Shown: in pieces, positions 732-37,740 of the stretch
Numbering within the stretch: the first letter of the stretch is position 1
Layout of the letters: each line of letters opens with the position of its first letter
Origin: a virus
Virus record (IMG/VR): IMGVR_UViG_3300007960_010163
Coordinates: 1 to 64,000 of that record
Reading direction: 5' to 3' (one strand)
DNA: 64,000 bases
The notes under the pieces: model-generated
Seen by the model: the letters and a program-made list of their open reading frames with translations, nothing else
Database searches by the model: none
What the model was told of the DNA's origin: nothing
Position numbers and translations under genes: made by a program

Positions 732-2298
732 CTTGATCAGGTAAAATATTATCTACCCCCATTTGTTGAGCCATGTCTCGCAAATCACCAACCTCTTCAA
801 CACCAAAGTTATCCATTCTTAGGAAGATACAATTTGGCTCAGCCCTATCATTCCCAACCGCTTCGCCATTCTCATCGATGGCTGGAATCAATACGGGTTC
901 AGTAGCTCGTAATCTATCCTCTCCTAAATGTCTAAACTTTACGCATTTAAGGCGATGTGTAGCCCTAGAATAACAGTCGGGCTCTATCTGAAGCTCGCGA
1001 GCCAACCTAGGTCGCAAAATAAAAAGATGAGAGGCAAACTGAGTAATTTGATCGGAAAGCGATACGATACTTTCATCTTCTACAATAGCGTCTGGATTTC
1101 TGTTGCCAGTAATACCAGTCCTATTACTTTGAACACTAGTCACCATACTAATCATAGGCTTATTGTCAAAGGTCACATCTCGTTGAACGAATTTTTTAAA
1201 CTTATCGACCATTTCACCAACCGCTTCCCAAGAACTTTTATTTTTATCGGTCTTTTCATTTGTGGTCTTAATATAGTCAAAGCTTAATATCATAGGATTG
1301 CCTCGACCTACCTTGGAGTAATAATGACGAGTTGCAACTTGTATCATTTCTTTAATTTCAAGGCCGCCAACATTAAAGTATTCAAAAGACATGTTTTTCA
1401 TTTCTTTAATGGCGTTATAAATTTTTGATCTAGTTTCCTCGACAGAAATTTCTTTGCCCGTTAGTGGCTCTATATAGCTAGAGTCTTTCCATTTTCCGCT
1501 TTCGATTAGATACATGGGAACTCCAGATAGAGCGGAGGCTTGTCTCATTTGAAGCTCTAGCTTGCTCATTTCACCATTATCAAAATGTAAAACAGGGACA
1601 TGATCATGAGCACTAGATATTTTTGTTACAAAATCCAAGCAAAAAGTAGTTTTACCAACCCCTGTTCTAGCGCATATAACAGAAATATTTCCGGGCCTCA
1701 CCAAGGATCCATAACACCTATTTAAATAAGGCATATGTGGCGCTAACATACCGGGGTCTCGAGGATTCTCAGCCAAATCTTCAAGCACCTCTTCTATATC
1801 GTCGTAGATATTTTCAGGGCCAATATTCTCGTGAGAATAAAAATCAATCTTGTCGTTATATTTAGTATCGGCTAGCTTGACTACTTCAGGTAATGACAAT
1901 CCTTGGCATTTAACCATGTCATCCTTGATTTCATCACAGGTATCAATTATGGACCTTCTTAAAGAAAAAGTTTTTAATTCTTTTGCTATAATTAAAACAG
2001 ATTTTTCTGAAACCTTTTTCAATAACAAACTTTTAATGTAATCCCCTATATCAATATTATCAATAAAAGATACATTGGCAGATCTTAATCGCTCAATTAA
2101 AACAACTTCATCTAAGGCTTCCGTGGGGCCAGAGTCCTGTATTTTTTTGATGATCTTAAAAATAGTCCTATGCACATAGCTGCCATGAGCAATAGAGAAA
2201 TCGCTTTCATCTATTAATCCAGCAACTTCACCATATGAAGCAGGAAACTTTATAAGGACAGACAATAATTGCCTTTCCAACTCTTTTGAGTCAATCAT
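712..2298 (-). CDS. dnaB: Replicative DnaB-like helicase
   Basis: N-terminal DnaB domain (ELERQLLSVL..HRTIF), Walker A ARTGVGKT, GEMS, FDYI Walker B, SVQSNR. Confidence 0.92.
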   Translation of the reverse strand: MIDSKELERQLLSVLIKFPASYGEVAGLIDESDFSIAHGSYVHRTIFKIIKKIQDSGPTEALDEVVLIERLRSANVSFIDNIDIGDYIKSLLLKKVSEKSVLIIAKELKTFSLRRSIIDTCDEIKDDMVKCQGLSLPEVVKLADTKYNDKIDFYSHENIGPENIYDDIEEVLEDLAENPRDPGMLAPHMPYLNRCYGSLVRPGNISVICARTGVGKTTFCLDFVTKISSAHDHVPVLHFDNGEMSKLELQMRQASALSGVPMYLIESGKWKDSSYIEPLTGKEISVEETRSKIYNAIKEMKNMSFEYFNVGGLEIKEMIQVATRHYYSKVGRGNPMILSFDYIKTTNEKTDKNKSSWEAVGEMVDKFKKFVQRDVTFDNKPMISMVTSVQSNRTGITGNRNPDAIVEDESIVSLSDQITQFASHLFILRPRLARELQIEPDCYSRATHRLKCVKFRHLGEDRLRATEPVLIPAIDENGEAVGNDRAEPNCIFLRMDNFGVEEVGDLRDMAQQMGVDNILPDQDGDLGI

Positions 2299-2306
2299 GA
2301 AGCGTT

Positions 2307-2335
2307 ATGTTAACAAAAAAAAATTGAAATGTCAA
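2307..2335 (-). promoter_or_regulatory. sigma70-like promoter for dnaB (TTGACA-17-TAACAT)
   Basis: -35 at 2335-2330, -10 at 2312-2307, 8 nt before the ATG. Confidence 0.65.
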
Positions 2336-2343
2336 GAACTTTA

Positions 2344-2616
2344 TTAGAGAGGATTATCTCCATCCCTATTGTTATTGAACATTTCAGATTCTTCGGATTC
2401 GATAATGTATTTCTCAATCGCTTTACGCAAGCCCATTTCAATGATTTGATTATCCGCTTTGGTATAAATCATGGGAGAGCCCTCTTGATTCACATAAGCC
2501 AATAAAAAACCTCTATTGCCATCTGTTGAGCCAGAAAACTCAAATAATTGATTGAGAAAAGATTCTGGAAGAACAAAAGAAGGAAAACCTTCTTCATCAA
2601 AATTATCTTCGTCCAT
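2344..2616 (-). CDS. Hypothetical acidic protein
   Basis: 90-aa ORF in the replication operon, preceded by an AGTGTA motif. Confidence 0.75.
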   Translation of the reverse strand: MDEDNFDEEGFPSFVLPESFLNQLFEFSGSTDGNRGFLLAYVNQEGSPMIYTKADNQIIEMGLRKAIEKYIIESEESEMFNNNRDGDNPL

Positions 2617-2634
2617 TAATATATATTACACTTT

Positions 2635-3042
2635 TTACAGGTAAATTCCTAACTCTTCGAACTTTTTTTTATCAAGCTCTGATTCGGAGTATATTTCTAC
2701 AAGCTTAATTTCATTCAATTCACAGAAATCAATTTTTTGCTGATCCCTTCGTATTTGACTAACGAAATTAGACCTGCGCTTATGAAAAAAGGGAACGTAT
2801 TTAACATGCTGTTGACCGTTAACTTCTATAGCGATTTTTTTATTAGCGTTATAAAAATCAAATTTTAATCTAGTTCCAGCAACAGGGAACTCCTCAAATA
2901 CAACATGGTTTTTCCAATACTGTTTAAGGAATTGCTTGGCGTTATATTGGATCTTGCTTTTGCTCGCTTTGTCCCAATCAATAATATATTTATTGGCTCT
3001 TGTTACTCTTTTAGTTGAGCCACTAAGTGTTTGAAAAAGCAT
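2635..3042 (-). CDS. PD-(D/E)xK endonuclease-like protein (DUF559/Vsr-like)
   Basis: EEFPV..RLKFDFY..IAIEVNGQQH..RRDQQKIDFC..IKLVEI; start adjusted to MLFQ. Confidence 0.75.
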   Translation of the reverse strand: MLFQTLSGSTKRVTRANKYIIDWDKASKSKIQYNAKQFLKQYWKNHVVFEEFPVAGTRLKFDFYNANKKIAIEVNGQQHVKYVPFFHKRRSNFVSQIRRDQQKIDFCELNEIKLVEIYSESELDKKKFEELGIYL

Positions 3043-3043
3043 C

Positions 3044-4141
3044 TTATTCGCAAACAATCTTCTTAAAATAAGAAGTTAAGAAATTAGTTAGCTTTTGGTC
3101 TTCTTCAAATAAATTACTGAGCTTGGCTTCGCCTTGAACTTTTTCGGGAAAATCCAAACCATTCTCTTTTAGTAACTCAAGGAATGATTCATCTGCGCTA
3201 ATCCAAGCACCTCGTTTGTGAACATATTCCCATCCATAAAGCATTTCTATTAACTCTTTCTCAACCCAAACAGAATTTCCGCCAGTTCTTCCGTAGCGAA
3301 TGGGATATTGAAGGGTATAGTTAGTCTTCTCGTTGGGTGATTTTTTTACTGTGATCTTAGCGAAATGACCAAGAATTTTGTTTTTATCTTTATCAACTGG
3401 TTGAGTTTGATTTTCTAGAATCAAATCTTTCTTATGCCTAGCTTCAAACTCAAGAATATAATTAGCAAAGTGAAGAAGTGCGTTACCCCCTGTTGCGCTA
3501 GTTTGTCTAATAGGAGCCTTGGTATATGGATCAAGTTTAATATCAGCGCGCACTTGAGAAATAAATATTGCCATGTGTCCACGCTTTGCTAGAGCGATAC
3601 TCATCTTTTGCATAAATTTTGCACCAAGAAGAGCGCCGCCAGCAACTTTATGAGCGTCTTGAAAATCTTTTTTCATGTCCTCCTTCATGATCAAACCATC
3701 AAGAGAATCTAGAATGAAACAGTATTTAGTTTTATTTTCATTGTCTCCCACTAAAGCTCTCATCAAATCCAAAACAGTCTCGTAAATATTACTTTCAAAA
3801 ACAAAACAATTACCATCTTTCCAATCGTCTTCAGCGGTAGCAAATTCAACCCCACTACGCTCTTGCATTTCTTTTGAAAGCCTACCTTCAGCTTTAATAT
3901 ACAAGCCTCTAGAATTGGGCATCTTTAGAAAGTTCTTCATGACTTCTAGAGCTTCAGAAGTCTTGCCTCCTTCGTTCATCCCAACGAACCTATGTAGTCC
4001 GGGGCCAAATCCTCCTCCAAGTTCGAAATCTACATTCAAGCTTCCGCTAGAAACTTTATAATCAATTTCATCTTCGAAGTTATAGTGATGTTCCTTATTC
4101 TCTTTAAGGAACGATTTTAACATGTCATTAGCTGTACTCAT
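3044..4141 (-). CDS. recA: RecA/UvsX-like recombinase
   Basis: SSGSLNVDFELGGG, P-loop GMNEGGKTS, ILDSLDGL, FISQVR, TGGNALLHFA. Confidence 0.88.
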   Translation of the reverse strand: MSTANDMLKSFLKENKEHHYNFEDEIDYKVSSGSLNVDFELGGGFGPGLHRFVGMNEGGKTSEALEVMKNFLKMPNSRGLYIKAEGRLSKEMQERSGVEFATAEDDWKDGNCFVFESNIYETVLDLMRALVGDNENKTKYCFILDSLDGLIMKEDMKKDFQDAHKVAGGALLGAKFMQKMSIALAKRGHMAIFISQVRADIKLDPYTKAPIRQTSATGGNALLHFANYILEFEARHKKDLILENQTQPVDKDKNKILGHFAKITVKKSPNEKTNYTLQYPIRYGRTGGNSVWVEKELIEMLYGWEYVHKRGAWISADESFLELLKENGLDFPEKVQGEAKLSNLFEEDQKLTNFLTSYFKKIVCE

Positions 4142-4143
4142 AA

Positions 4144-4692
4144 TCAATAATAGTCCCAGATGTTTTTCTTCTTTTTCTCTCTGGGCTCTCTTTTTTCGGG
4201 TTTATAATCGTAATTAAACTTAGTATATCCATCTTTTGCCGTAAAGTCAATAAATTTTTTATGCAAATTTTGTTCAGCCTTTCCAATATATAAAAGAATA
4301 TCGTCTCTAGGTTCTCCGAAATCTACGTTTAACCAAAAATCTATATTAGGATACTTTTTAAATAACCTTTTTAATATCTTGAATTGTTTAGCGTAGCAAT
4401 AGCTATTAGTTAGACATTTTTTAGTGACTAATTTTCTAAGTATTTTAGAAGAGTTTTGAGAAAACGCAAAGCTGTTCACGAAATCGTAAACAACGGATTC
4501 TTTCAACGGCTCGGAATCTTCTGTCTTCGAATAACCAGCTTCCCATTTGCCAGACTTTAAATTTCGATACCAATTATATACAGTAGTATGATTATAACCT
4601 AGTTTTTTGGAACAGTCCTTAATTGATAAAGAAGGATCTTGCTTGGAACAACCTAGCATATCAATTAAAATTTGATTCGAAATCTTTTGCAC
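4144..4692 (-). CDS. Hypothetical protein with N-terminal helix-turn-helix
   Basis: SIKDCSKKLGYNHTTVYNW HTH; in-frame GTG at 4692 lies 7 nt after a TTGACT-17-TAATCT promoter (the ORF-track TTG start is the -35 box). Confidence 0.65.
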   Translation of the reverse strand: MQKISNQILIDMLGCSKQDPSLSIKDCSKKLGYNHTTVYNWYRNLKSGKWEAGYSKTEDSEPLKESVVYDFVNSFAFSQNSSKILRKLVTKKCLTNSYCYAKQFKILKRLFKKYPNIDFWLNVDFGEPRDDILLYIGKAEQNLHKKFIDFTAKDGYTKFNYDYKPEKREPREKKKKNIWDYY

Positions 4693-4761
4693 AAAAAAAA
4701 GATTAACATATTTATAAGAAAAAGTCAAGGATTATTATTATAATAGTGTATTAATATAAAT

Positions 4762-5565
4762 ATGAAACGAAAGATTCTTATTATGGGTTTGCCCGGTTCT
4801 GGGAAAACTACACTTGCTGAAAAGCTTGTGTCTAAGTTGAACGCCGCTTGGTTTAATGCTGATGCCGTAAGACAAGACATTTATTCCGAATTGGGATTTT
4901 CCCCAGAGGATAGACTCGCTCACGCAACTCGAATGGGTAAACTTTGCGACTGGGCAAAACTGGGAGGCTCATATGTCATAGCTGACTTTGTATGCCCAAC
5001 CAAAGAAACAAGGGAAGCTTTTGGCGCTGACTTTACCATATGGGTTGATAGAATTGAAGAAGGTAGATACGAAGATACCAACAAAATGTTTCAAAAACCA
5101 GAAGGGTATGATATTAAGCTAAAAGAAGGAACACCAGACGAATGGTGCGCAAAGGTTGTTGAGAAGCTTAATGAAACTGAAGCTTGGGATAATCAAGCGC
5201 CAACCGCCCTTTTAATAGGAAGATATCAACCTTTTCATATTGGCCATAAAAGTTTAGTTGCCGAAGCGATCAGAAGAACTGGGCAATGCTGCATTGCTTT
5301 GAGAGACGTTGGAGGAATAGACGAAAAGAACCCTTACGATTTCGAGCAAGTCAAAAAAGAAATCGAAGCAGCTTGCATTGAATTTGGAAATAAAATCAAA
5401 GTTGTAGAACTTCCTAATATTATGGACGTATTCTATGGAAGAGGAGTAGGATACAATATAGAGCAACTCGAGCTTAGCAAAGAGCTCCAAGAAGTCTCCG
5501 CTACAAAAATTCGCGCTGGAGAAATCGGGCAAGATGGAAAACCTTTAGGTAAAAGACCTGAATAA
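4762..5565 (+). CDS. cysC: Adenylylsulfate kinase fused to a HIGH-motif nucleotidyltransferase domain
   Basis: N-terminal GLPGSGKTT, NADAVR, LGFSPEDR, ADFVCP (CysC); C-terminal GRYQPFHIGH and SATKIR (NMNAT/cytidylyltransferase-like). Confidence 0.85.
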   Translation: MKRKILIMGLPGSGKTTLAEKLVSKLNAAWFNADAVRQDIYSELGFSPEDRLAHATRMGKLCDWAKLGGSYVIADFVCPTKETREAFGADFTIWVDRIEEGRYEDTNKMFQKPEGYDIKLKEGTPDEWCAKVVEKLNETEAWDNQAPTALLIGRYQPFHIGHKSLVAEAIRRTGQCCIALRDVGGIDEKNPYDFEQVKKEIEAACIEFGNKIKVVELPNIMDVFYGRGVGYNIEQLELSKELQEVSATKIRAGEIGQDGKPLGKRPE

Positions 5566-5593
5566 TTTATACCGTTAGTAAAACTAACCCTCC

Positions 5594-5633
5594 AAAAGAA
5601 AAAGCCCCCTAGCAATAGGGGGCTTATTTTTTT
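5594..5633. terminator. Bidirectional rho-independent terminator
   Basis: 10-bp stem AAGCCCCCTA-GCAA-TAGGGGGCTT flanked by A-run and T-run, between convergent genes. Confidence 0.88.
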
Positions 5634-5663
5634 GCGGATTTAATCGCCTGTACAGTACATGAT

Positions 5664-5948
5664 TTAATTCTTTTTGTCAAGCTTGGAACGAATTTTTTTA
5701 ATGGCGCTAGGAAGCAAACGGGGCTTGCAAGACAAAAAACATCCACCTATAATAAAAAGACTAATAAATAAAAAGGGTTTCCATGCAGGACTATCCTTTG
5801 ACACATGAATAGGAGATTCTTTCTCTTCTATTCGCTGAGCAACTTCAATCTTTTCTTCTAAGGTTTTGGGTTTGTATCCTGTATTAATTGAATGCTGAGT
5901 TGGCGAACAAGAAAGCAAGAAGAAGCATATTATCAATATGTTTTTCAT
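5664..5948 (-). CDS. Small putative lipoprotein with C-terminal transmembrane helix
   Basis: [14 protein letters not shown] lipobox-like signal; hydrophobic [14 protein letters not shown] followed by a basic tail. Confidence 0.6.
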
Positions 5949-7252
5949 GTAGACTTAATTCTAAGCACATTGGTTTCTGTTATGTCCTCAGGGCCTTGAG
6001 TCTTCTCAGGCTCAGGCTCAGGCTCTGGTTCAGGCTCTGGTTCAGGCTCTGGTTCAGGCTCTGGTTCAGGCTCGGGCTCTGGTTCGGGCTCTGGTTCGGG
6101 ATCAGGCTCAGGTTCGGGATCAGGCTCAGGTTCTGGATCAGGTTTCGGAGGTAAGAATTTAGGCTTTACTCGATCAACAATATTTTCATATGGTTTTTGG
6201 CGCCGCATTTTAAAACTAGAATTTGCAGCAAGCAACATGACCACAGCAAGGGGATCAAATACAAAAACCAAAATCAGTATAACAATTCTTACAGCCTCGG
6301 ACAAATCAACAGACTCAGCGCCGAAGTCTTCAAATAGTTCGGCAACATATTTAACTGGGCCAACTTCAGCTTCAAGATTTAATTGAGAATTTTTATACTC
6401 AAATTTTTCAGCTTCCATTTGATCTATTCTTTCATAAGCTGATTTAATGTTTTTATTGAACTCTTCTTTTTTAGCTGATATATCCTCTTTAGAATAAGTG
6501 TTGTCTTGTCTTTCGTTAATACGAGATCTAATTTTATCAACTTCAGTTTGAGTTGATTCACGCATTTTGGATATTCTAGATTCTGCGCTCTCTATCTTTG
6601 TTTTTATACTATCTCTTTCGGGCTTTTGTTTTACAGCAAGCTCTTCGAGCTTTTTCTTTTTACTGCCAAATAGACCGCCAGAGGCACTATTCAGTAAGGC
6701 GACTTCTTCATCAAGAGCCTGTATTCTTGAGGTTAGACGACCAATCTCGTCATTATCAAGCTTCATGTTTTTATCTAAAGATACATATAAAGCATCGATC
6801 TTCTTTTGTTCAAGCTCAATATTATAAGCATTGCTCTCAGTAGAATCTTCTTTTTCAACAGATAATTGATTGATATATTCGTTCTGCCTAGTTATATATT
6901 CGTTCTCTCTGCTGATTTTATTATCTAATTGAGACATTAAGATAGCATTCTCTTCGGCGTTTTTCTGATGTTCAATATGGGACTTACTAAGAAAGCCGAA
7001 AATACCCATACTCGTTATAAATATGAGAACAACTACGGCAGAAGTCAGGTATATCTTTAAGCTTTTAGAAGCAACCTTCCAATTGTGATGAAGCCAACTT
7101 GCAGATACAAGCTTACCAACCTCTAAAACACCACCCATGATCACAATAGACCAAAAAGCAGCAGGAAACATCGTTGTCAATCCGATAATGCTAAAATATG
7201 CAGAGACGCATGATATGCTCAATGCAGAAAGCAGGATCAAATAAGAGATCAT
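5945..7252 (-). CDS. Membrane protein with long coiled coil and Pro-Glu tail
   Basis: Three N-terminal TM segments, long heptad-rich region, [17 protein letters not shown], (PE)n tail; ATGA overlap with upstream gene supports start at 7252. Confidence 0.8.
6005..6145 (-). repeat. Hexanucleotide-period tandem repeat encoding (PE/PD)n
   Basis: CCTGAG/CCAGAG/CCTGAA/CCTGAT-type units giving [14 protein letters not shown]... Confidence 0.9.
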
Positions 7253-7401
7253 GACTTCTTTTTCTTCTTGTCGTATTGGGAATAGCAAACCGCAGCGCGC
7301 TGTTTAGCGTCTGGGAATTCTTTACGAGCCGTAGGATCACTCATGCAGCGAGAAATAAACTTTCCACGCTTCTCGTCTTTTGATTTTTCGGGTAATGGCA
7401 T
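7249..7401 (-). CDS. Small conserved phage protein
   Basis: [37 protein letters not shown]; AGTGTA motif 9 nt upstream of ATG 7401. Confidence 0.7.
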
Positions 7402-7457
7402 AAAAATATATACACTTTGATCTTGACAATACCTCAAAAAACTGTCATATTATGGTT

Positions 7458-8513
7458 ATGAAACTTATAAAATATCTAATCTTTCTCCCCGTTTTCGCCC
7501 TTGCCGATACTCTTTCTCCACAAGAGATAGATAAATTGGTGGAGCATGCTTTTTATTCGGATAATGGATATAATTCCAAGAACTTTTCAAGATGGAATAA
7601 GCCAATTCACTTGTTCGTTAACCCATTTTGGAATGGGGTAAGTGCTGATCGTACGGAGCCAACAAGAAAAGAATTAGATGAAATCCAAAAAGTCACTGAC
7701 GACATCACTCAATTAACAGGAATTCAATATATTATTCATGAAGAACCACTTACTCTTGAGGAAGTAAGGTCTTATGTTATGAATAATCCAAAAGTAGGAT
7801 CTATTCAAATGTACTTTGTTCCACACAATAGATACATAAGTAGCGGAATGCAAGCAGAAGCATCATTTTCAAGAAATTCTGCAAAGATTAAAATCAATAC
7901 TTATTACAGAAAATCCAATGGACAAGATTTAGAATTTGTTCTCCATAATATTAGAGAAGAATTGACGAACATAATTGGATTACCCGGAGATACATATAGT
8001 AGAGTTGATAAATTTTCAGCATTAGAAGGCGTAGCAGAGCATTTTGCGCATGAGTTCAGCTTGATGGATAGAAGGAACATTTACGCCTACTACGCAATGG
8101 ACAAGGGAAGTGGGCATGAATATCCCCCAAGTTATACAGAGGCAGAATTTCGCGAAAGAATTGCGAAGGTCGAGATTGATGACGAAATCGTAAACGGTGG
8201 AAGGTTTGAGGGAATGGTCGATCCAGAATTCACTGACTTTGAAATACTTCATGGTACAGCTAGCAAATCAGAAACGAACAAGCATTCTGAACCAACGCCT
8301 GAACCAGAAGAACAAACGAAGGAAGAAGTACAAGAAAAAGCCGAACAAGCTGCTCTAGACGCAGATTGGCTTTACTTTAAGCATTACCCTTGGGTCTACT
8401 CAAGCAAGACGGGTTCTTGGTACTACCTCGTCCCTAGAAACGAAGGAATGATCGTCTGGAGCCAATTGTCAAACAAATGGCAAATGATGTCAGAGGCCTT
8501 TGGGACCAATTAA
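7458..8513 (+). CDS. Secreted protein, DUF2927-like domain plus C-terminal Trp/Tyr-rich motif
   Basis: Signal peptide MKLIKYLIFLPVFALA; IREELTNIIGLPGD; C-terminal WLYFKHYPWVYSSKTGSWYYL; TTGACA-17-CATATT promoter 6 nt before ATG. Confidence 0.6.
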   Translation: MKLIKYLIFLPVFALADTLSPQEIDKLVEHAFYSDNGYNSKNFSRWNKPIHLFVNPFWNGVSADRTEPTRKELDEIQKVTDDITQLTGIQYIIHEEPLTLEEVRSYVMNNPKVGSIQMYFVPHNRYISSGMQAEASFSRNSAKIKINTYYRKSNGQDLEFVLHNIREELTNIIGLPGDTYSRVDKFSALEGVAEHFAHEFSLMDRRNIYAYYAMDKGSGHEYPPSYTEAEFRERIAKVEIDDEIVNGGRFEGMVDPEFTDFEILHGTASKSETNKHSEPTPEPEEQTKEEVQEKAEQAALDADWLYFKHYPWVYSSKTGSWYYLVPRNEGMIVWSQLSNKWQMMSEAFGTN

Positions 8514-9833: not shown

Positions 9834-9834
9834 T

Positions 9835-10185
9835 TTAGTATAGATGACGTTCGTTAATCAAATATTCGCCAGCAGTACCAGTAATAACAGGCCGTGCATA
9901 AGCAAAAGCCCAAGTGTCAGAATAAGCTATATGACCATCAGAGCCACTAAATGGAAGACAGGATATACTACTATAATTGACTCCATCGTTTGAAACTTCA
10001 ACCTTAAATTCAGCATTCCAAGTCGGTCCAGCACCTATAGGTAGAACTTGATAAGTATGAATTGTATAGTCTGCTACTTCAAGAGCATTACCAGTTAAGC
10101 TAAGATTACCACTGGTTTGTACAGTTTCGGTTCCAAAATTTACCCTATCGGCTTTGCCGCGAAGTCTTCTATAAGTTGGTTTCAT
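9835..10185 (-). CDS. Hypothetical beta-rich protein, probably virion-associated
   Basis: VEVSNDGVNY motif; adjacent to tail fibre. Confidence 0.6.
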   Translation of the reverse strand: MKPTYRRLRGKADRVNFGTETVQTSGNLSLTGNALEVADYTIHTYQVLPIGAGPTWNAEFKVEVSNDGVNYSSISCLPFSGSDGHIAYSDTWAFAYARPVITGTAGEYLINERHLY

Positions 10186-10245
10186 CCTAATAAGTATATA
10201 ATCATTAGATTATACACTTATTTTTAAGACCCGAACAGTTTTTTA

Positions 10246-11259: not shown

Positions 11260-11310
11260 ATAATAGTATAACGATACTATCATAAAAATAGATCTAAGTC
11301 AATAAAAAAA

Positions 11311-11745: not shown

Positions 11746-11750
11746 GATAA

Positions 11751-14352: not shown

Positions 14353-14943
14353 TTAAAATTCGTAATTATATTCTTCTATGTCTTCCTTGTATATATTATA
14401 CACGATATTCTTTGTTTCTTCTATATATAATTGTCTATAGTCCTGCTGCTTTGTCGAATTTATTTTAGGTATTACCTTTAGGGGAATATTTAAGCGTGAT
14501 CTTATGCTCATGTAATCGTGATTAATGTCTTCTACTTTTCCAACGAAATCAACTCGAGCATCTAAAAAATAGGAAAAGGGCTGAAAGTGAATGCCAGAAC
14601 GAACTGAACCCTCTTCGCGGATCATCATATTCTGAAATTCAGGGATTCTTCTAACGAATTCGTCAAAAGAAATTTGTTTAGCTAAATCGGCAAGCTTTTG
14701 ATTTCCTTTATACCATCTATCTTTAGGGTTCATAGATTTGAAGTAACGATAACAAGAAGCTATACGATCCCACGGGTTACGAACAAAAGAAAAAGAAAAA
14801 TACCCCTGATCTAAAAACTCAGAATGCTTTGATGCTGGAGCATGCCCCGAACCTAAAAAATCTAAATTAAGACTTTTGTAAACTGAGGTTCCAGCACATT
14901 TAGGTATGTGAATAAAGACACATTTTAAATCATGAGATATCAT
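14353..14943 (-). CDS. Sulfotransferase (Sulfotransfer_2 family)
   Basis: FIHIPKCAGTS (5'-PSB) and FVRNPWDRIAS (3'-PB). Confidence 0.85.
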   Translation of the reverse strand: MISHDLKCVFIHIPKCAGTSVYKSLNLDFLGSGHAPASKHSEFLDQGYFSFSFVRNPWDRIASCYRYFKSMNPKDRWYKGNQKLADLAKQISFDEFVRRIPEFQNMMIREEGSVRSGIHFQPFSYFLDARVDFVGKVEDINHDYMSIRSRLNIPLKVIPKINSTKQQDYRQLYIEETKNIVYNIYKEDIEEYNYEF

Positions 14944-17861: not shown

Positions 17862-18655
17862 AAAGAATCTATATATTTCAATAAATCAAAGCCATTATTT
17901 CTTTGAATCTTGTGTTGATTTAAATTAAGAACACGGCAAATTGTATCAAAAAAAGGATAAAACCCTGCTCCGATTTTTTTATCCGAAAGCGTTTGTGCAT
18001 CGACTTCAATAACTAAAGTATCGGGTTGACAAAAAAATAAATTAGCCATGCAAGCTCCATGAGCACATATAATAATTTTCGCATAATGAAAATGCATGAT
18101 TTGATCTTTAAAATCCATATTTTCCAGAATAACAGAGCCAAATTTATCTTTATATTTTTTACTTAGCATCTTTTCCGCCCTGTCTATACCTTTAATTTCA
18201 CGACGCTCTTTACCATTTGTTAAATTGTTATTTTGTTTTTTTAAATATGGATCAGAGATTAGATCTACTCTTTCTCCTCTTTTTATTAAAAGCACCTCTG
18301 GATAAGAAGCATCAGGGGATTTGTCAATACCTAAGGACTGAAAAATAAAATGAGCAAATTTGCTAAAGTCTTGAGTGTTTTCGTGAGAAGGCAATCTTTC
18401 AATGACTTTTTCTTCGCATTCAATTTTGTCAAATGCTGTTTGATCTACTTCTATGTTTCTGCAATTGAATATTTCTTCATATATTTTTTCAAAATTACCT
18501 AATGTCTGATCTAAATTTTTTATTCTAAAAACATGGTCATGCTCAGGTATACCAGAGAGAACTTCAGGAAAAACACAATCACACATAAAATGTGCGAAAT
18601 GAAATAAATTGCCGCCTTTTCTTTTGTTTTTAACTTTTATCAAACTCATAATCAA
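17858..18655 (-). CDS. GT61 (DUF563)-like glycosyltransferase
   Basis: NLFHF, LENMDFKDQI, CAHGACMANLFF..VIEV. Confidence 0.8.
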   Translation of the reverse strand: MIMSLIKVKNKRKGGNLFHFAHFMCDCVFPEVLSGIPEHDHVFRIKNLDQTLGNFEKIYEEIFNCRNIEVDQTAFDKIECEEKVIERLPSHENTQDFSKFAHFIFQSLGIDKSPDASYPEVLLIKRGERVDLISDPYLKKQNNNLTNGKERREIKGIDRAEKMLSKKYKDKFGSVILENMDFKDQIMHFHYAKIIICAHGACMANLFFCQPDTLVIEVDAQTLSDKKIGAGFYPFFDTICRVLNLNQHKIQRNNGFDLLKYIDSL

Positions 18656-19202
18656 ATAGCCTTATGTCTTTTGAGAATTTTTCTGCAACCATATTTACAC
18701 TACGATCATTATAGAAATAAGAATAATGAATGCCTTTAGGTTTTGGGGATACTTTTTCTCTATCTGGACCGGTTGTTATAGGTTTAGAGTTTTCGTGAGG
18801 AAGCTTAGTTTTAGCCTTGCCTATTTTTTGACATACAAAATCGAAGTCTTGCTGTAAGTTTTCAAACTTACCTATAAAATCAATGTCAAGATCGAAATAA
18901 TCACTGTGAATACAGCTATGGGCAGTAAGCCGCTCTTTTTGCTCATACCATCTTGAAATATATTCATTAAAATCTTTTGTATAACACTGACCATTATAAA
19001 AATATTGTGAAACCATCTTGTCCCAAGGGTTTCTTGTGAATGAAAAAGTAAAATAATCATCCCATTTGCCTTTTGTTATCGATTTAATATCAGAAGCTGG
19101 AACATGAAATTGTTTTTTTCTCATGTTCAAAGCGGAGCAAACAGAGACACCTCCTGTTTTAACCACATGAATAAAAATACATTTATATTGATGATTAATC
19201 AT
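18630..19202 (-). CDS. Sulfotransferase (Sulfotransfer_2 family)
   Basis: FIHVVKTGGVS, FTRNPWDKMVS, FIGKFENLQQDF. Confidence 0.82.
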   Translation of the reverse strand: MINHQYKCIFIHVVKTGGVSVCSALNMRKKQFHVPASDIKSITKGKWDDYFTFSFTRNPWDKMVSQYFYNGQCYTKDFNEYISRWYEQKERLTAHSCIHSDYFDLDIDFIGKFENLQQDFDFVCQKIGKAKTKLPHENSKPITTGPDREKVSPKPKGIHYSYFYNDRSVNMVAEKFSKDIRLFDYEFDKS

Positions 19203-19852
19203 TTGTTGATATCTAATCTTAATACCACCTTGTCTGGCCAAGGATTAATTTCTTTTGGGACGATTCCGCATTTTTTCAAAAATTTTGCAACAGCTAAATC
19301 TTCATATATATGATGATACCTAATTTCAGAAACTTGGTGAAAATTTTTAAATTTTTTAACAGCTTCAGAGCTTAAGAAATAAGTGGCTCCTCCAGCAGCC
19401 CAATGAACATAATCACCATTATATCTTTTATTGTACCAAGGAGAATCTTCTCTTACTCTACCAATATGCCAGCCCCTCTTGCCTTCTTTAGTTTTTACTT
19501 GAAAGCCTGCGTAATCATAATCTGCGAGCGATTCAATTAACTGATTTTCTCTACTAGGATTCCATCTGACCCAATCAATATCGTCATCTATTTTCCAAAA
19601 ATAATCATAATTTTTATGATAATCATTGTTAGCTAAGTAATTATAAATTGCAAACATCTTCTCTGGCAGGTCTTCATATAGATCGCGACATTTTAATTGT
19701 ATAACATTTTCTTCCAGTTCCTTTTCCTCTTCTCCACCAGTAAAGATCAAATAGTCACCAAGATTCCATTTTTCAACTCGAGCTTTAATTTCCTTAACTC
19801 GATGAATATACTTTTGACAGCATACAAAAACTTTAAGTATTCCACTTTTCAT
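19199..19852 (-). CDS. GT31 (galactosyltransferase/Fringe)-like glycosyltransferase
   Basis: YEDLPEK, WKIDDD, AGGATYFLS, YEDLAV. Confidence 0.75.
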   Translation of the reverse strand: MKSGILKVFVCCQKYIHRVKEIKARVEKWNLGDYLIFTGGEEEKELEENVIQLKCRDLYEDLPEKMFAIYNYLANNDYHKNYDYFWKIDDDIDWVRWNPSRENQLIESLADYDYAGFQVKTKEGKRGWHIGRVREDSPWYNKRYNGDYVHWAAGGATYFLSSEAVKKFKNFHQVSEIRYHHIYEDLAVAKFLKKCGIVPKEINPWPDKVVLRLDINK

Positions 19853-22368: not shown

Positions 22369-22953
22369 TTATTTAAATTCATATCCGAAATGCTCAATGT
22401 CCTTCGCGTATTTTTCTGCAACGACACCACGCATTTCATCATCATAATATTCAGTATAGTATTTATGTTTCGACTTATTGTTCCAACGAAGTTTGCGAAT
22501 CGGTATGCCCATCTTGTTACATATAAAATCCCAATCCTTTTGAATTGTTTCAAACCTGCCTATAAAGTGAGGTATTAAGCCTCCATCGTAATCACATATC
22601 CACTCGTGTTGAGGTCTAAAATGAATTTGATCAAAAAGAGAGTCGTCCCAATTTAACACAAGGTCTCTAAAACTTTTATATTTAGATAAATATTTTTTAA
22701 AGTCTAAAGCGTCATTTTTGCAATTCCCGCCCTGTTTTAAATAGTGGAAACTGGAAACTAAGCGATCCCAAGGATTCCGCACAAAAGTAAATATAAAATC
22801 ATAATCATGATAATTAATATCTTTTAAGAATTTAAACTCTTTTAAGTTAGTATCGTGACCCTGATAAAAATAAGGGCATGGATTAGGATTAAGGGAGTTA
22901 CCTGCGCATTTCGGTATATGAGCGAAAAGCCACTTTTTTGATTCACATTCCAT
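22369..22953 (-). CDS. Sulfotransferase (Sulfotransfer_2 family)
   Basis: FAHIPKCAGNS, FVRNPWDRLVS, HFRPQ. Confidence 0.85.
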   Translation of the reverse strand: MECESKKWLFAHIPKCAGNSLNPNPCPYFYQGHDTNLKEFKFLKDINYHDYDFIFTFVRNPWDRLVSSFHYLKQGGNCKNDALDFKKYLSKYKSFRDLVLNWDDSLFDQIHFRPQHEWICDYDGGLIPHFIGRFETIQKDWDFICNKMGIPIRKLRWNNKSKHKYYTEYYDDEMRGVVAEKYAKDIEHFGYEFK

Positions 22954-23505: not shown

Positions 23506-24069
23506 CTATCCTCGAAATTTGTAACCAAAATGCTCAATGTCTTTTGCGTATTGTTCTCCAACGATTTGTCTCGTTTCGCCATCATAATATGCTGTATAGT
23601 GTTCGTGGCCATTTCTGTTTTTATGAGGTAACTTCACTTTAGGGATCTTAAGTTTATCAAAAACTTTATCCATACCATCGGGATCTTCTAGTTTAAAAAC
23701 ATAATCCATTAACAAATTGCCATCTTCATCAGCAAGCCAATTAAATTGAGGGGATGCTGGATAATGCCTGACGAAATCTTTAAATTCAGTATGGTTATGT
23801 TGGCCTTTTTTAAGCCTATATGCCCATGATGAAACCCGTCTTTCCCAAGGGTTTCGTACTACAGAAAATTTATAATAACCATTCCAGTCCCAGTCTTGAG
23901 ATTTGAAATGAGATTTTAGATTAAGTGCTGTTGTGTGATGTTTATATGGTGAATTTCTATCATTAACGCTTACTATATCGCTATATGGATCAATAACAGA
24001 TCTGACTGATGTACTGCCAGTTTTCGGAACAGCGATAAAAACAAATTTATGTTTGTGAGATATTCTCAT
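23506..24069 (-). CDS. Sulfotransferase (Sulfotransfer_2 family)
   Basis: FIAVPKTGSTS, VVRNPWERRVS. Confidence 0.85.
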   Translation of the reverse strand: MRISHKHKFVFIAVPKTGSTSVRSVIDPYSDIVSVNDRNSPYKHHTTALNLKSHFKSQDWDWNGYYKFSVVRNPWERRVSSWAYRLKKGQHNHTEFKDFVRHYPASPQFNWLADEDGNLLMDYVFKLEDPDGMDKVFDKLKIPKVKLPHKNRNGHEHYTAYYDGETRQIVGEQYAKDIEHFGYKFRG

Positions 24070-29326: not shown

Positions 29327-29943
29327 TTTTTGATACTATTGTAAAAGTAATCATCTAAATTATCACACTTTAGTATATCACCTTCGTTTGTTTTTACCCA
29401 TTTTCTATAAAAAGCCTTAAAGTTAAGCTTTAGTTCAGGCCCAGACATTTCTCTTAATTGATTATCTATATTATCAACGACACCAGTATCTTTTATGATA
29501 GAGAGAAGCCTTTTTGCGCTTGAAAGAGACGTGATATAACCCTCTCCCCATTGAAAAAGCCTTACTATGTTGATATCATTATCAAGTAGACTCCACTTGT
29601 CCGACATTATGTCATTTAAGGAGTCGAAAAAGCCGGGGAGAAGCTTAGCATCATCCTCAAGAAAAAGAGCGTAAGGAATTTCATTATCTATTTGAAATTT
29701 TAAAAACTTAACCTTCGTTATCCAGCAAGCAAGTGTACCGTAGGTGTTGAAATCATTTTTAGGGCCAATCTTTAGTTTGTGAAACTGCACATCTAGATTA
29801 ATGAATTCATTGATGGTTTCATCTTTATCATAGCCATTAACCGATTTTACAATATTGACAAAAGGAAAAAGCTTAGTTGTTTTGTTGACATATACCAGCC
29901 TATCTTCAGTTAAGAGTGAAAGAATGTATGTCTTATATTTCAT
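29323..29943 (-). CDS. GT25-like glycosyltransferase
   Basis: VNG, GTLACW, LFLEDDA, GYITSLSSAKRLL, IDNQL. Confidence 0.72.
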   Translation of the reverse strand: MKYKTYILSLLTEDRLVYVNKTTKLFPFVNIVKSVNGYDKDETINEFINLDVQFHKLKIGPKNDFNTYGTLACWITKVKFLKFQIDNEIPYALFLEDDAKLLPGFFDSLNDIMSDKWSLLDNDINIVRLFQWGEGYITSLSSAKRLLSIIKDTGVVDNIDNQLREMSGPELKLNFKAFYRKWVKTNEGDILKCDNLDDYFYNSIKK

Positions 29944-30571
29944 AGCTAAAAAGATCGAAGTCTTTCTTGTAGTAATTATACACTTTTTCTTTTAGCTCAT
30001 CGGTCCATTTAAATGGCTGCTTGAATGTTTTCGAGTTATATGCATGGGGTAATTTTAATTCTGTTACGCCTATGTTAGAGCAAACCTCATTAAATCCTTC
30101 ATTAAGATTCTCAAACTTTCCTATAAAATCACAGGTAAATTCGGGGTTAATTTTATCTGAAAAATAATGACCACCATTTAAATGAGGAAAAAATTCAAAC
30201 TGAGGCAAAGTATGATATTCATCGTATTCGCTCCATAAGTTTTCATTGTCTTTGCGGTAATCAAGATCAGTAGTTAGTAATACATATTCTTCGAATGATA
30301 CCCCGCATTCTTTATTGTAAAAAGGAAGGTTGCCTTCTTTGGAAAATTTTAGCTCACCCCATTTCCATGCAGAAACAAAACGGTCATAAGGATTGCGAAC
30401 AAAAGAAAATACATAATAATCCAAATGGTCATTTAGAAAATGAGAAAAGCCACGTTTTCTTAAAATTTTCTGAGGTATTTCTGGATCTACTTGCCGCAAG
30501 AACCTTTCGACAGATGTGCCTGCCGCTTTGGGAATGTGCAAAAATATACATTTATTTTTATGAGAGATCAT
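29933..30571 (-). CDS. Sulfotransferase (Sulfotransfer_2 family)
   Basis: FLHIPKAAGTS, FVRNPYDRFVS. Confidence 0.85.
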   Translation of the reverse strand: MISHKNKCIFLHIPKAAGTSVERFLRQVDPEIPQKILRKRGFSHFLNDHLDYYVFSFVRNPYDRFVSAWKWGELKFSKEGNLPFYNKECGVSFEEYVLLTTDLDYRKDNENLWSEYDEYHTLPQFEFFPHLNGGHYFSDKINPEFTCDFIGKFENLNEGFNEVCSNIGVTELKLPHAYNSKTFKQPFKWTDELKEKVYNYYKKDFDLFSYEI

Positions 30572-34790: not shown

Positions 34791-35378
34791 CTATTCTCCA
34801 AATTTATAGCCAAAATACTTTATATCTTTTGCGTATTTTTCCGCAACGATGTGACGAGTCTCATCGTCATAGTATTCGGTATAGTGTTTATGTTTTGTTT
34901 TGTTTTTGTGCGGAAGTTTTTGTCGTGGAATTGCTATTTTGTCGCAAATAGCATCATAATCATTCTGTAGGTTTTCAAATCTACCCACAAAATCTACAAT
35001 GATATTTTTGGCATTATCGCAAATCCAATCGCACTGAGGTTTAAAATGTATCTGATTGAGATAACTTTCATCCCAATTTAAAATTACGTTTCTAAAACTC
35101 CCATATTTAGAAAATAAATTATTATAATCTTTTAGGTCGTTAGGGTTGTTGCCTCCATTTGATAAATATTTATATGATGAAACCAATCGCTCCCAAGGGT
35201 TGCGAACGAAAGTAAAAGAAAATTGCGAATTTTTTCTTAACTCACTGTCTTTATAATATTTGAAATTTTCGTTTCGTAAATTATGTCCAAATCGTGTATA
35301 ATATTGCGGTCTAACTACAGAACAACCTCCGCATTTAGGTATATGTATATATATATATTTATGTTTATGATTGATCAT
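34791..35378 (-). CDS. Sulfotransferase (Sulfotransfer_2 family)
   Basis: [22 protein letters not shown], HFKPQ; start adjusted to MINHKHK. Confidence 0.85.
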   Translation of the reverse strand: [195 protein letters not shown]

Positions 35379-35379
35379 G

Positions 35380-36267
35380 TCAATAACACTTCTCTTGAAA
35401 GTTGATATGAAAATTTGGTATACCTTTGTATAAGCAAAATTCATTAAAGCGACTGAAGTTCTTAAATAAGAAATTAGTCTCTTGCAATAGATAAAAATCA
35501 ATCAAAGCTTCTTTGGCAATCTTAGTCCTGCCATAATTCTCTTCTTTTTCAATAATATCTGAAGTGGACTTTTCACCTTTTTCGTGACCAGTACCACATC
35601 CCGGCGGAGCAAAATACCTATCAGCAACTATAGATTGAGGATACGCATTTTGGAATAAATCAACAAACTGACGAGAGTCAGAAGCAATGAAAAATTTGTA
35701 ACCGTCGCAAGCTTTTAAAAATGCACGTGGTGAATCAAAAAGAACATGATCTATCCTCTCTTTAAAAATGTGGAAAATGGTTTCAATAGGATTTCTTTCT
35801 CCTTGAAAACGATTAGAGTTTCCTGTTTTGGGAGGCAAAACTTCGCCGTTAGAGCAACGGGCATGAACACCAACAATATAATTACCAGAAAAATTAGAAT
35901 AGGCAAAGGACTCCATTGGTATAGAGACAGATTCGCTAGGAATAATCCTTTTAAAACAATTAAAAAATTTCAAAGAATCTTGTTTGTCTTTAAGTGGGTT
36001 TTTTATAACCAATTTAGAATCATTATGCATTTCCGCTTCTTTTTTATTAGCGTCAATTTCATCTTCATTAGTGATTATATTAATATCAGTATCTATTCCT
36101 GAAAAATATTCATGGAATAAATTTTTGTCACCCTTGCTCATCCATGCGCCGCGAAAGTCGATAAGCATATCTTTTTTATTTTCTTCGCAATACAAAAGAG
36201 CGTTTGTTAGATGCCAGAGGGTGTCACCCCATCCAGTATCACGAGTAAAATAATAATAACTGCTCAC
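35380..36267 (-). CDS. NodZ/GT23-like fucosyltransferase
   Basis: GWGDTLW, IDFRG, VGVHARCSNGE, FFIASDS, ALIDFYLL. Confidence 0.72.
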   Translation of the reverse strand: MSSYYYFTRDTGWGDTLWHLTNALLYCEENKKDMLIDFRGAWMSKGDKNLFHEYFSGIDTDINIITNEDEIDANKKEAEMHNDSKLVIKNPLKDKQDSLKFFNCFKRIIPSESVSIPMESFAYSNFSGNYIVGVHARCSNGEVLPPKTGNSNRFQGERNPIETIFHIFKERIDHVLFDSPRAFLKACDGYKFFIASDSRQFVDLFQNAYPQSIVADRYFAPPGCGTGHEKGEKSTSDIIEKEENYGRTKIAKEALIDFYLLQETNFLFKNFSRFNEFCLYKGIPNFHINFQEKCY

Positions 36268-37070
36268 AACTCGACTTTCTCTTCTCCATATTTATCAAAC
36301 ATTTCTTGATAGTTTGATATTTTGTCATAAGCTTTTTTGCCAAAGACTCTTCTGTCTGTGCCTAAAAAATTAGATACATTGTTTTCGTCGATTTCAACAC
36401 CTAAATATTCTATGATTTTATTGAATTGCTTCACTCGCTCTTCGTAGGTTTCTAAGCTATATAAATCTTCGTACTTAGAAACAAAACTATTCTTGGGTAG
36501 AAGATTATGGTAGTAAGGTAGGTATTTTTTGTACCATCGCACCCGGCGTTGAATCGGGGGCTCTTCAAGATCTTGATATTCAAAAGAATCAACTTTTGAT
36601 TTATGCTCCTTATTCTCTCCTAGCTGCCAAACTTGAACTTGGTTTGCGAGCTGCCAAGAGATAGCAGGGTAAAAAGCGCTTTCTCTATATTGGAATATGA
36701 TTTTTATACTATGCTCCCCGCAATAATCCAAAAAATTTTCATTCCCTATTTCAGAAACTGTACACCATACATGTTTAACGCCATCAAACGTTTCAAAAAG
36801 AGAATCTAAAAAAGGAAAAAGCTTATCTTTATCTTCTGATATATTGTTAAATCTATTAAAGTATGGAATGTTTTTTGATTTAGGAAGAAGAGATGGATCC
36901 ATATTATGCTTTGCAATTATATCTGCATAGCGAGGGTTGTGTTCTAGGTCTCCAGTAAGGCTCGACAGAGGCTCGTGAACGATTCTGTCGTTCTTGTTTA
37001 AGGCAGAGATAAGACTAGTGGTGCCAGCTCTTTCTTGGCCGAATATTACAAACTTAGAATCCATAACCAA
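36264..37070 (-). CDS. Sulfotransferase (Stf0/Sulfotransfer_1-like)
   Basis: FVIFGQERAGTT, HEP, GVK, YRE..AISW, YEDL. Confidence 0.7.
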   Translation of the reverse strand: MVMDSKFVIFGQERAGTTSLISALNKNDRIVHEPLSSLTGDLEHNPRYADIIAKHNMDPSLLPKSKNIPYFNRFNNISEDKDKLFPFLDSLFETFDGVKHVWCTVSEIGNENFLDYCGEHSIKIIFQYRESAFYPAISWQLANQVQVWQLGENKEHKSKVDSFEYQDLEEPPIQRRVRWYKKYLPYYHNLLPKNSFVSKYEDLYSLETYEERVKQFNKIIEYLGVEIDENNVSNFLGTDRRVFGKKAYDKISNYQEMFDKYGEEKVEL

Positions 37071-37740
37071 AATAATTAAGATCAGCAGAAAAATGATTCT
37101 CTATAAAATCTTTAGAATATTCTGAATAATAATCTTTATAACTTTTTTTCTTCTTATATTCAGAGCTGCTATTTTGTCGCCAATCATTAAATCCTGATTT
37201 ATTTTCAAAGTTAAATCTTTCAGAAAGATCTGATGTGCAAGATTTGATATCTTCCATTTTGTAAAACTTATCTATCGCTACTTTGCCATAAAGCGATACT
37301 CGGTCAAGATTGTTTTCATAATACCCAGTATGAAACTTTTTGATATTACCTTCTTTATAGGCATAATCAATAAAGCCGTCAAAATCATTTGCGAGATAGT
37401 ATTTCCTAAACTCTTGAACATATGGCATCATTGGAGAATCGATATTATTCTCAACAAAATAATCAAACTTCCAACCACCCAAATAAGAGAACATGGAAAC
37501 AACCCTATCAAAAGGATTGCGAACTATCGTAAACTTAAAATAATCTTTATAATCAGGAACTTCTGGTACGACAGCGCTTAAAGCTCGTTCGCAAGTAGTC
37601 TTGTATTTATCGTCGTAATCTTGTTGGTTTTGGTTTTCTTCGTAACCTTCTTCTATGTTTGACAATAGAAAATGCTTTATGAATGTTCCTGCAGATTTAG
37701 GGATATGGACATATATGAACTTATGATCGCGACTATACAT
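37054..37740 (-). CDS. Sulfotransferase (Sulfotransfer_2 family)
   Basis: YVHIPKSAGT, IVRNPFDRVVS. Confidence 0.85.
   Translation of the reverse strand: MYSRDHKFIYVHIPKSAGTFIKHFLLSNIEEGYEENQNQQDYDDKYKTTCERALSAVVPEVPDYKDYFKFTIVRNPFDRVVSMFSYLGGWKFDYFVENNIDSPMMPYVQEFRKYYLANDFDGFIDYAYKEGNIKKFHTGYYENNLDRVSLYGKVAIDKFYKMEDIKSCTSDLSERFNFENKSGFNDWRQNSSSEYKKKKSYKDYYSEYSKDFIENHFSADLNYFGYGF

Follow-up and report, generated by a model that had tools for sequence, protein, structure and literature searches.

The stretch of DNA analysed here, called the window below, is the 64,000-nucleotide segment at positions 1 to 64,000 of the IMG/VR virus record IMGVR_UViG_3300007960_010163. It is uncultured phage DNA with 34.7% G+C. 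Its plus strand carries an open reading frame (ORF) at 4762..5565, stop codon included, which starts with ATG and encodes a 267-aa protein made of a kinase and a nucleotidyltransferase. The protein matches PHROG 10255 ('kinase') over its full length at 5.6e-53. The N-domain (residues 1-140, 4762..5181) is a lid-less homologue of adenosine 5'-phosphosulfate (APS) kinase according to Pfam, the PDB, and Foldseek. It contains the P-loop GLPGSGKT (residues 9-16, 4786..4809) and the stretch D34-A-V-R37 ... L44-G-F46-S-P-E-D-R51 (4861..4914). The C-domain (residues 141-267, 5182..5562, core ~145-255) is a minimal HxGH/ISxTxxR nucleotidyltransferase and a candidate sulfate adenylyltransferase. Three motifs mark it on the same strand: the HxGH nucleotide-binding motif GRYQPFHIGH (residues 153-162, 5218..5247), the family-specific loop YGRGVGY (residues 225-231, 5434..5454), in which G226, R227, and G230 are invariant, and the ISxTxxR-type motif SATKIR (residues 246-251, 5497..5514) with an invariant R251.

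The gene is flanked by genes on the opposite strand, at 4144-4728 (minus) and 5664-5948 (minus). Downstream of it, at 5602..5625, lies a bidirectional, intrinsic-terminator-like hairpin with a 10-bp stem, six GC pairs, and a T-run on both strands. An earlier note on this DNA had described an inverted gene with its own terminator, encoding a 267-aa protein with an APS-kinase N-domain and a C-domain with GRYQPFHIGH and SATKIR, and this description was borne out. The same note had given the gene an AGTGTA motif of its own, which did not hold up. TAGTGTA occurs five times in the window while 4.88 copies are expected by chance, and it is therefore not demonstrable as a promoter motif. Four of the five copies (4744, 18696, 27413, and 48675) sit 10-41 nt 5' of start codons on the coding strand, and the ORFs downstream of them start at 4762, 18655, 27401, and 48665.

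The N-domain was compared with APS kinases by sequence and by structure. Pfam APS_kinase (PF01583) matched it with 46 bits against a cut-off of 21.1, in a match that spans residues 5-86 and, of the 152 profile positions, 5-91. The top sequence matches in the PDB were APS kinases, namely 2yvu (5.8e-7) and the kinase domain of PAPSS1, 2ofw (7.2e-6). D34-x-x-R37 and L-G-F46-S-P-E-D-R51 align with DGDxxR and LGFSxEDR of the solved APS kinases 2yvu, 2ofw, and 7yq0. Across the family alignment of 57 homologues, K15 of the P-loop and R37 are invariant, and D34, F46, R51, and R84 are kept in at least 90% of the rows. The equivalents of D34, R37, F46, and R51 presumably bind APS in the solved kinases. 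The AlphaFold model has a predicted local distance difference test score (pLDDT) of 93.3. With this model, Foldseek returned 2ofw at 3.1e-9 and 7yq1 with a template-modelling score, TM(target), of 0.73. Nearly all Foldseek matches listed for the N-domain are APS-kinase chains or domains, with T4 polynucleotide kinase at rank 27 as the one exception. By sequence, predicted fold, and the conserved D34, R37, F46, and R51, the N-domain is a well supported APS-kinase homologue. To that extent the N-domain was named correctly in the earlier note, apart from the lid, which is absent.

The C-domain is more distant from families with a defined function. Pfam CTP_transf_like gave 21.3 bits, just over its cut-off of 21. 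Models for nicotinamide mononucleotide adenylyltransferase (NMNAT) stayed far under their cut-offs (TIGR01527, 19.5 vs 181.2; NF002243, 22.5 vs 127; NF003786, 32.5 vs 397), and the protein Atlas returned generic 'cytidyltransferase' viral clusters only. Modelled alone, the C-domain reached a pLDDT of 94.4. In VIA comparisons with this model, the Z score was 10.3 both for the NMNAT of M. jannaschii (1f9a) and for the phosphopantetheine adenylyltransferase (PPAT) 4nah, followed by NadM at 10.2 (2qjt) and 9.7, and NadR at 8.8. Thermus ATP sulfurylase (1v47) scored 8.2 with a root-mean-square deviation of 3.5 over 117 aligned residues, and other ATP sulfurylases scored 6.1-6.5. Foldseek returned PPAT and NMNAT at ~1e-4 and one FAD synthetase, mostly in alignments of ~75-80 columns. 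Both NMNAT-type motifs, GRxQPxHxGH and SxTxxR, are present when the domain is aligned to 2qjt and 1f9a. The alignment to 1f9a spans profile positions 14-56 and 92-121, and the middle segment is ~25 residues shorter than in NMNAT. Where NMNAT has 'IGS' after strand 2, the C-domain family has a conserved R-D. The invariant residues, in domain numbering, are G14, Q17, H20, and H23 (HxGH), G87-R88 and G91 (YGRxVGY), and R112 (SxTxxR). R181, in the numbering of the whole protein, is likewise invariant.

The earlier note had placed the C-domain in the HxxH superfamily of Sat, the ATP sulfurylase. This is correct at the level of the superfamily, where H159-I-G-H162 in a Rossmann-like nucleotidyltransferase fold is the HxxH that is common with Sat and the Z score to 1v47 is 8.2, and it does not extend to the family, since Sat motifs and a Sat-level score are missing. 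PF01747, the Pfam family for Sat (cut-off 24.3 bits), is not among the best 25 of the 41 Pfam families listed for the window protein. A SAR11 relative of the C-domain, encoded at locus L167, has a sub-threshold Pfam ATP-sulfurylase match of 17 bits. Judged from sequence and model, the C-domain (~115 aa) belongs to the HxGH superfamily, is nearer to NMNAT and PPAT, and falls outside the Sat family.

The combination found in the phage protein is widespread. The query has more than 7,336 matching proteins in the database, and many of these are encoded on marine contigs of up to ~237 kb. A library of 50%-identity representatives gave 144 matches at E <= 1e-30, which include stand-alone kinases, stand-alone C-domains, and fusions to DUF4118 membrane domains. 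Of 160 loci, 80 bacterial and 80 viral, 144 have the kinase and the C-domain either fused or next to each other. The order is reversed, with the C-domain first, in loci from Omnitrophota, Peribacteria, and Acidobacteriota. One protein, P0266, joins the same C-domain to a full-length canonical APS kinase with a lid, which matches PDB APS kinases at 6.7e-31 over residues 6-165. At a Flavobacteriaceae locus (L064), the order is TauE, a full CysC (Pfam positions 2-150 of 152), a 119-aa C-domain, a pyruvate-kinase barrel, and Sulfotransfer_3. The viral neighbours scanned include one stand-alone CTP_transf_like ORF (cluster of L142, five loci).

Two further arrangements were seen among these relatives. 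The trimmed kinase is fused to the DUF4118 membrane domain, on either side, in several representatives (P0121, P0187, P0196, P0195, P0207, and P0224). In P0121 (395 aa, 55% identical), the whole kinase and C-domain unit is fused to DUF4118. The pyruvate-kinase barrel of the Flavobacteriaceae metagenome-assembled genome (MAG) is a barrel-only protein of 335 aa (L064, 1716-2720), below the equivalog cut-off, and lies between the CysC and C-domain pair and the sulfotransferase.

Potential users of the product are encoded in the same window. Seven ORFs on the minus strand match Sulfotransfer_2, a family of presumed users of 3'-phosphoadenosine 5'-phosphosulfate (PAPS). They lie at 14353..14943 (Pfam, 2.2e-13), 18630..19241 (8.8e-8), 22369..22953 (2.4e-18), 23506..24069 (1.6e-11), 29933..30571 (2.9e-17), 34791..35501 (4.8e-20), and 37054..37740 (6e-17). 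Eight sulfotransferases had been counted in the earlier note. A hidden Markov model (HMM) built from the seven Pfam matches and run locally on 84 ORFs of the window recovered the same seven and no eighth. All seven genes belong to a ~44-kb glycan island (11960-55812) that lies almost wholly on the minus strand. The island holds at least 15 ORFs of glycosyltransferase families (GT2, GT25, GT47, GT61, GT90, Fringe, NodZ-like, and others). It also contains two Methyltransf_24 genes, UDP-galactopyranose mutase, GDP-mannose dehydratase, epimerases, pieces of UDP-glucose dehydrogenase, and a hexapeptide acyltransferase. A gene for the large subunit of ribonucleotide reductase (RNR) and two long ORFs without assignment interrupt it. 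A full-length sulfatase is encoded among the sulfotransferases at 16446-17861 (minus; Pfam Sulfatase 8.8e-50, with SGSH_C). In five other viral loci (representatives L122 and L119), a radical-SAM/SPASM protein with the architecture of anaerobic sulfatase-maturating enzymes adjoins the fusion gene.

Co-occurrence with sulfotransferases across phages, which the earlier note had suggested as a check, was found in part of the records. An iterative phmmer search with 15 seeds detected a sulfotransferase-like ORF within 3.5 kb at 18 of the 80 viral and 4 of the 80 bacterial loci; the viral count lacks a matched random-locus background, and placement within records was estimated instead. Pfam places Sulfotransfer_3 directly upstream of the fusion at L120 (4.5e-18) and L152 (4.1e-17) and Sulfotransfer_2 directly upstream at L123 (22.7 bits, cut-off 22). 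Pfam sulfotransferases also occur in two further neighbour clusters of seven viral loci each, with weaker matches at L127, L151, and L158. In bacteria, the fusion stands beside Sulfotransfer_3 genes in Bradyrhizobium (L025) and at another alphaproteobacterial locus (L054). Scans of whole records covered four isolated phages and 22 viral records with a length of 40 kb or more (n = 26). Sulfotransfer_2 was present in 7 of the 26, Sulfotransfer_3 and Sulfotransfer_1 exceeded their cut-offs in 4 each, and the union was 10. Of the six records with a full fusion and a single sulfotransferase locus, four had this locus no more than 5 kb away from the fusion, with a chance probability of 0.004 under a crude uniform-placement model. 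Adding Ralstonia phage RSL1, which has the kinase homologue only, gave 5 of 7 and 0.0004 under the same crude model.

In RSL1 (L003, 5001-9513, and record positions 165456-166088), the kinase-only relative is ORF238, which covers APS_kinase profile positions 2-131 of 152. Its neighbours are two TET-associated glycosyltransferase (TAGT) genes and sugar-nucleotide transferases, and a Sulfotransfer_2 gene lies 4.7 kb away. As a speculation, this context could hint that a glycosylated DNA base is sulfated. On another contig, which is viral and 79.6 kb long, the fusion is closely followed by a gene of the tryptophan-halogenase family (L152, 4336-5928; 6.4e-104).

A second context was found in SAR11 (Pelagibacterales), where the kinase (136 aa) and the C-domain (124 aa) are encoded by adjacent, separate genes. 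The pair lies in an organosulfur and one-carbon island with genes for homocysteine S-methyltransferase, enoyl-CoA hydratase, SBP56, YeeE-like sulfur transport, and CoA binding. Strong C-domain matches occur in 99 of 121 Pelagibacterales genomes and aprA in 101. Both are present in 97 (96 without G109, which is flagged as unpublished), the C-domain alone in 2, aprA alone in 4, and neither in 18. This association has a Fisher p of 1e-15, uncorrected for shared ancestry. In ~19 genomes, the C-domain gene is ~350 bp from aprA and convergent with it (e.g., L166 and L168). At L167, the kinase is missing, and the C-domain gene by itself is found just upstream of aprB-aprA. The order there, all on the same strand, is TenA-like, C-domain, a 263-aa ORF, AprB, AprA, a 116-aa ORF, and TauE. 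Sulfur oxidisers typically carry sat beside aprMBA. Canonical Sat was found in 5 of the 121 genomes, four of which have aprA and the C-domain and one of which has neither. According to one study, aprAB is core in Pelagibacteraceae and their sulfate-reduction pathways are incomplete (PMC12636525). Sulfotransferases are described as typical of the SAR11 hypervariable region in a preprint (10.64898/2026.04.03.716430).

One SAR11 isolate contig (L084, contig C2 of G001) has a different arrangement at 406-6050. There, a canonical CysC-type kinase is fused to an uncharacterised C-terminal part of 200 aa. Its neighbours are formyltransferase-like, a 775-aa PEP-utilising protein like pyruvate phosphate dikinase (PPDK), class-I glutamine amidotransferase (GATase), and NTP_transferase genes. 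Taken as a set, these genes are similar to those of the Campylobacter pathway for the O-methyl-phosphoramidate donor.

Carriers of the pair were also searched for other routes of sulfate activation. In five related phage records that are at least 90% complete, neither Sat (0/5) nor PAPS_reduct (CysD/CysH, 0/5) was detected, and each record had exactly one APS_kinase match, which was the fusion itself. Five bacterial carriers likewise lacked Sat (0/5) and CysD over the cut-off (0/5), a result limited by MAG incompleteness. One Bradyrhizobium MAG has a CysD-like match of 212 bits beside a CysNC-type kinase. The housekeeping genes CoaD, NadD, and CoaE were over their cut-offs in 5/5, 4/5, and 4/5 of the carriers, respectively, and the kinase and C-domain pair is thus not their replacement.

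Taken together with the architecture, folds, conserved residues, gene contexts, and phyletic patterns described above, these data make it probable that a single polypeptide converts sulfate to PAPS. The C-domain (residues ~141-255) would adenylylate sulfate with ATP (ATP + sulfate -> APS + PPi), and the 3'-OH of APS would then be phosphorylated by the N-domain, giving PAPS. Phosphorylation of APS would pull the unfavourable first step, and the PAPS formed would feed the seven Sulfotransfer_2 enzymes of the ~44-kb glycan island. Both activities, and the coupling between them, are argued from comparative evidence and context. Sulfate adenylylation by the C-domain, as claimed in the earlier note, is putative and partly supported. 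It draws on the coupling to APS-kinase-type kinases, the sulfotransferase and aprBA neighbourhoods, and the absence of Sat and CysD, and it is opposed by the nearness to NMNAT and PPAT and the lack of Sat motifs. We also lean, by a smaller step past even, towards a broader proposal. In it, the C-domain would be a third, unrecognised class of ATP sulfurylase from the NMNAT/PPAT branch of the HxGH superfamily. In SAR11, which are more abundant than any other marine bacteria, it would be the partner that AprBA and the sulfotransferases of the hypervariable region have been missing. After capture by phages, it would have been fused to a trimmed APS kinase to fuel the synthesis of their own sulfated glycans.

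Several observations weigh against the conversion of sulfate to PAPS by this protein. For the C-domain, the structural ranking puts NMNAT and PPAT above Sat, the Foldseek list contains no Sat, and a profile of stand-alone C-domains searched against the PDB returned NMNATs. Five SAR11 Sat proteins share FQTRNxPHxGH, YxGPREA, VGRDHAG, and ISGSxFR. QTRN and GRDHAG were not found in the C-domain family, which has GRYQPFHxGH instead. In hhalign, the C-domain and the five Sat proteins aligned from HxGH through YGR only, with a probability of 10% and an E of 0.0031; at this low probability, the YGR loop is set opposite Y-x-G-P-R of Sat. This hhalign match was not accepted as a sign that the C-domain belongs to the Sat family. 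For the N-domain, the NCBIfam model apsK (TIGR00455) gave 40.6 bits, below its cut-off of 138.7. The lid (~24 residues, RDVKGLYxKAR...FTG) is deleted compared with P0266 and the CysC of the SAR11 contig L084, and APS-kinase homologues are able to use other nucleotides.

The contexts are uneven as well. No sulfotransferase was found within 3.5 kb at 62 of the 80 viral loci, and the 18 with one have no matched background for comparison. Whole-record scans detected no sulfotransferase over the Pfam cut-off in 16 of the 26 long viral and phage records. At the level of single ORFs, Pfam gave marginal sulfotransferase matches in two of those 16 (G018, through L123, and the Sano-like phage Bhz60). 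In Bhz60, the order is a Sulfotransfer_4-like ORF (a partial match, 26.2 bits vs 22.8), a NADAR gene, and the fusion. A NADAR gene adjoins the fusion gene only in Sano/Salvo-like phages. The SAR11 association is phylogenetically non-independent, and MAGs in that set may be incomplete. Since Sat, aprA, and the C-domain occur together in four SAR11 genomes, displacement of Sat is not strict.

A possible but unlikely alternative is that the kinase half alone serves sulfation. It would turn APS made by the host, for example by AprBA from sulfite and AMP, into PAPS, and the C-domain would be another adenylyltransferase or have a role in nucleotide binding or regulation. The evidence for the kinase is indeed much stronger than that for the sulfurylase, and the C-domain fails the Sat motifs. 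SAR11 hosts have AprBA as a possible supply of APS (see also PMC12636525). However, the catalytic-type residues of HxGH, YGR, and SxTxxR hardly vary, if at all, and this speaks for an active enzyme. The C-domain at L167 has no kinase beside it, yet it lies upstream of aprB-aprA on the same strand. The genomes G002 and G003 have no aprA, Sat, or CysD but do have sulfotransferase neighbours, so that the kinase alone would have no source of APS there.

Another explanation, less likely again, has the pair producing some other nucleotide donor with a 3'-phosphate. In this case, a small anion or phosphate ester would be nucleotidylated and the product then 3'-phosphorylated, similar to the Campylobacter phosphoramidate or to coenzyme A (CoA). 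PPAT and dephospho-CoA kinase follow the same logic of adenylylation and then 3'-phosphorylation, and PPAT shares first place with NMNAT among the fold matches of the C-domain. The SAR11 contig L084, whose canonical CysC-type fusion has PPDK-like, GATase, and NTP_transferase neighbours, fits such a donor. So does Cj1415, an APS-kinase homologue that acts in a pathway of this kind according to PMC11800397. Still, the recurrent neighbours of the pair are aprBA and sulfotransferases of families named for the use of PAPS, and the phosphoramidate-type cluster uses an NTP_transferase-fold enzyme rather than the C-domain. Among the neighbours scanned, CoA-linked genes occurred only in the SAR11 island (ECH_1 and CoA_binding_2). 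The presence of housekeeping CoaD in 5/5 and CoaE in 4/5 of the carriers lowered the CoA-synthase reading.

Least likely is a NadR-like enzyme of NAD+ salvage or anti-defence with swapped domain order, in which a nicotinamide riboside kinase and an NMNAT-like domain would make NAD+: in sequence, no family is closer to the C-domain than the NMNATs, which tie with PPAT by fold, GRxQPxHxGH and SxTxxR are NMNAT-type motifs, Sano/Salvo-like phages have the adjacent NADAR gene, and a phage NadR-like system, NARP3, exists (PMC13464706), but the kinase is of the APS-kinase and not the ribosylnicotinamide-kinase type, the C-domain is ~50 residues shorter than archaeal NMNATs and far below NMNAT cut-offs, NadD is present in 4/5 carriers, and the tests of genomic context, which lowered this reading, gave sulfur-related surroundings and no NAD-pathway family in 27 representatives (of the 45 largest neighbour clusters from the 160 loci) or in 39 further neighbour ORFs.

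A megablast search of window positions 1-12000 against isolated phages gave no match. DnaB-like, primase-like, RecA-like, and RNR genes are also present in the window. At 5945-7288 (minus), a 447-aa protein is encoded. Its N-terminal part has membrane helices, a long coiled-coil-like region follows, and the C-terminal part consists of a run of PE/PD dipeptide repeats. Its sole Pfam match, to Trypan_PARP, comes through the repeat and is below the cut-off.

The texts available in the literature searched, with bioRxiv supplements and subscription journals outside the search, contain no description of the fusion, of an NMNAT-like ATP sulfurylase, or of a phage sulfation pathway. Viral 'cysC' appears in those texts in surveys of auxiliary metabolic genes (AMGs) only. 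If the C-domain is a sulfurylase, it would add a third route to APS and close a gap in SAR11 sulfur metabolism, where aprAB is core (PMC12636525) and canonical Sat is found in only 5/121 genomes. Marine metagenomes would also have to be interpreted differently with regard to sulfite oxidation and sulfation. The fusion would be the smallest known PAPS-forming enzyme, useful for enzymatic sulfation. Phages would then be capable of self-sufficient sulfation, with donor synthesis and seven sulfotransferases of their own. Should the C-domain prove to have another activity, a function would still have to be found for a kinase-nucleotidyltransferase pair that is very widespread (>7,000 database proteins).

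Among known systems, Cj1415 of Campylobacter jejuni, a cytidine diphosphoramidate kinase, offers one comparison. Taylor and Raushel are said to have named Cj1415 as the kinase in 2018. According to PMC11800397, this APS-kinase homologue 3'-phosphorylates a nucleotide-activated donor of a small group for glycan decoration, and Cj1415-Cj1418 make CDP-phosphoramidate 3'-phosphate. The partners differ: Cj1415 acts alongside a glutamine kinase and a cytidylyltransferase of the NTP_transferase fold, whereas the phage kinase has an HxGH partner and sulfotransferase neighbours.

The C-domain has its nearest relatives in NMNAT and PPAT. The NMNATs (1f9a, 2qjt, and 2qjo, with Z scores of 10.3, 10.2, and 9.7) and the phage NARP3 protein Bas30_86 (9x6f) have the same GRxQPxHxGH and SxTxxR motifs and NPxxF after strand 2. 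The C-domain differs from them in its length (~115 aa vs 164-181 in solved NMNAT chains), in R-D for 'IGS', in the family-specific invariant YGR loop, and in its APS-kinase-type partner. PPAT, or CoaD (4nah and 1h1t), is likewise a small enzyme with HxGH and has a basic loop following strand 4, and most entries in the Foldseek list are PPATs. Carriers, however, keep canonical CoaD and CoaE besides the kinase and C-domain pair.

In overall design, the phage protein resembles the PAPS synthases. The bifunctional metazoan PAPSS1/2 (1x6v and 2ofw) and the bacterial and fungal Sat-APS kinase fusions of Aquifex (2gks) and Penicillium (1i2d) likewise join an APS-kinase-type domain and an HxxH-superfamily domain in one chain. 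In PAPSS, the kinase is N-terminal, as it is in the phage protein, and among the fold matches of the phage N-domain, the APS-kinase domains of the PAPSS1/2, Aquifex, and Penicillium entries rank highest. With 267 aa, the phage protein has less than half the length of the PAPSS and Sat-APS kinase chains (546-630 residues). It has no lid, no second domain of the Sat family, and no PUA-like or extra domains. The likeness to PAPS synthases is therefore one of logic and not of family, since the kinase half is homologous and the second half is not Sat.

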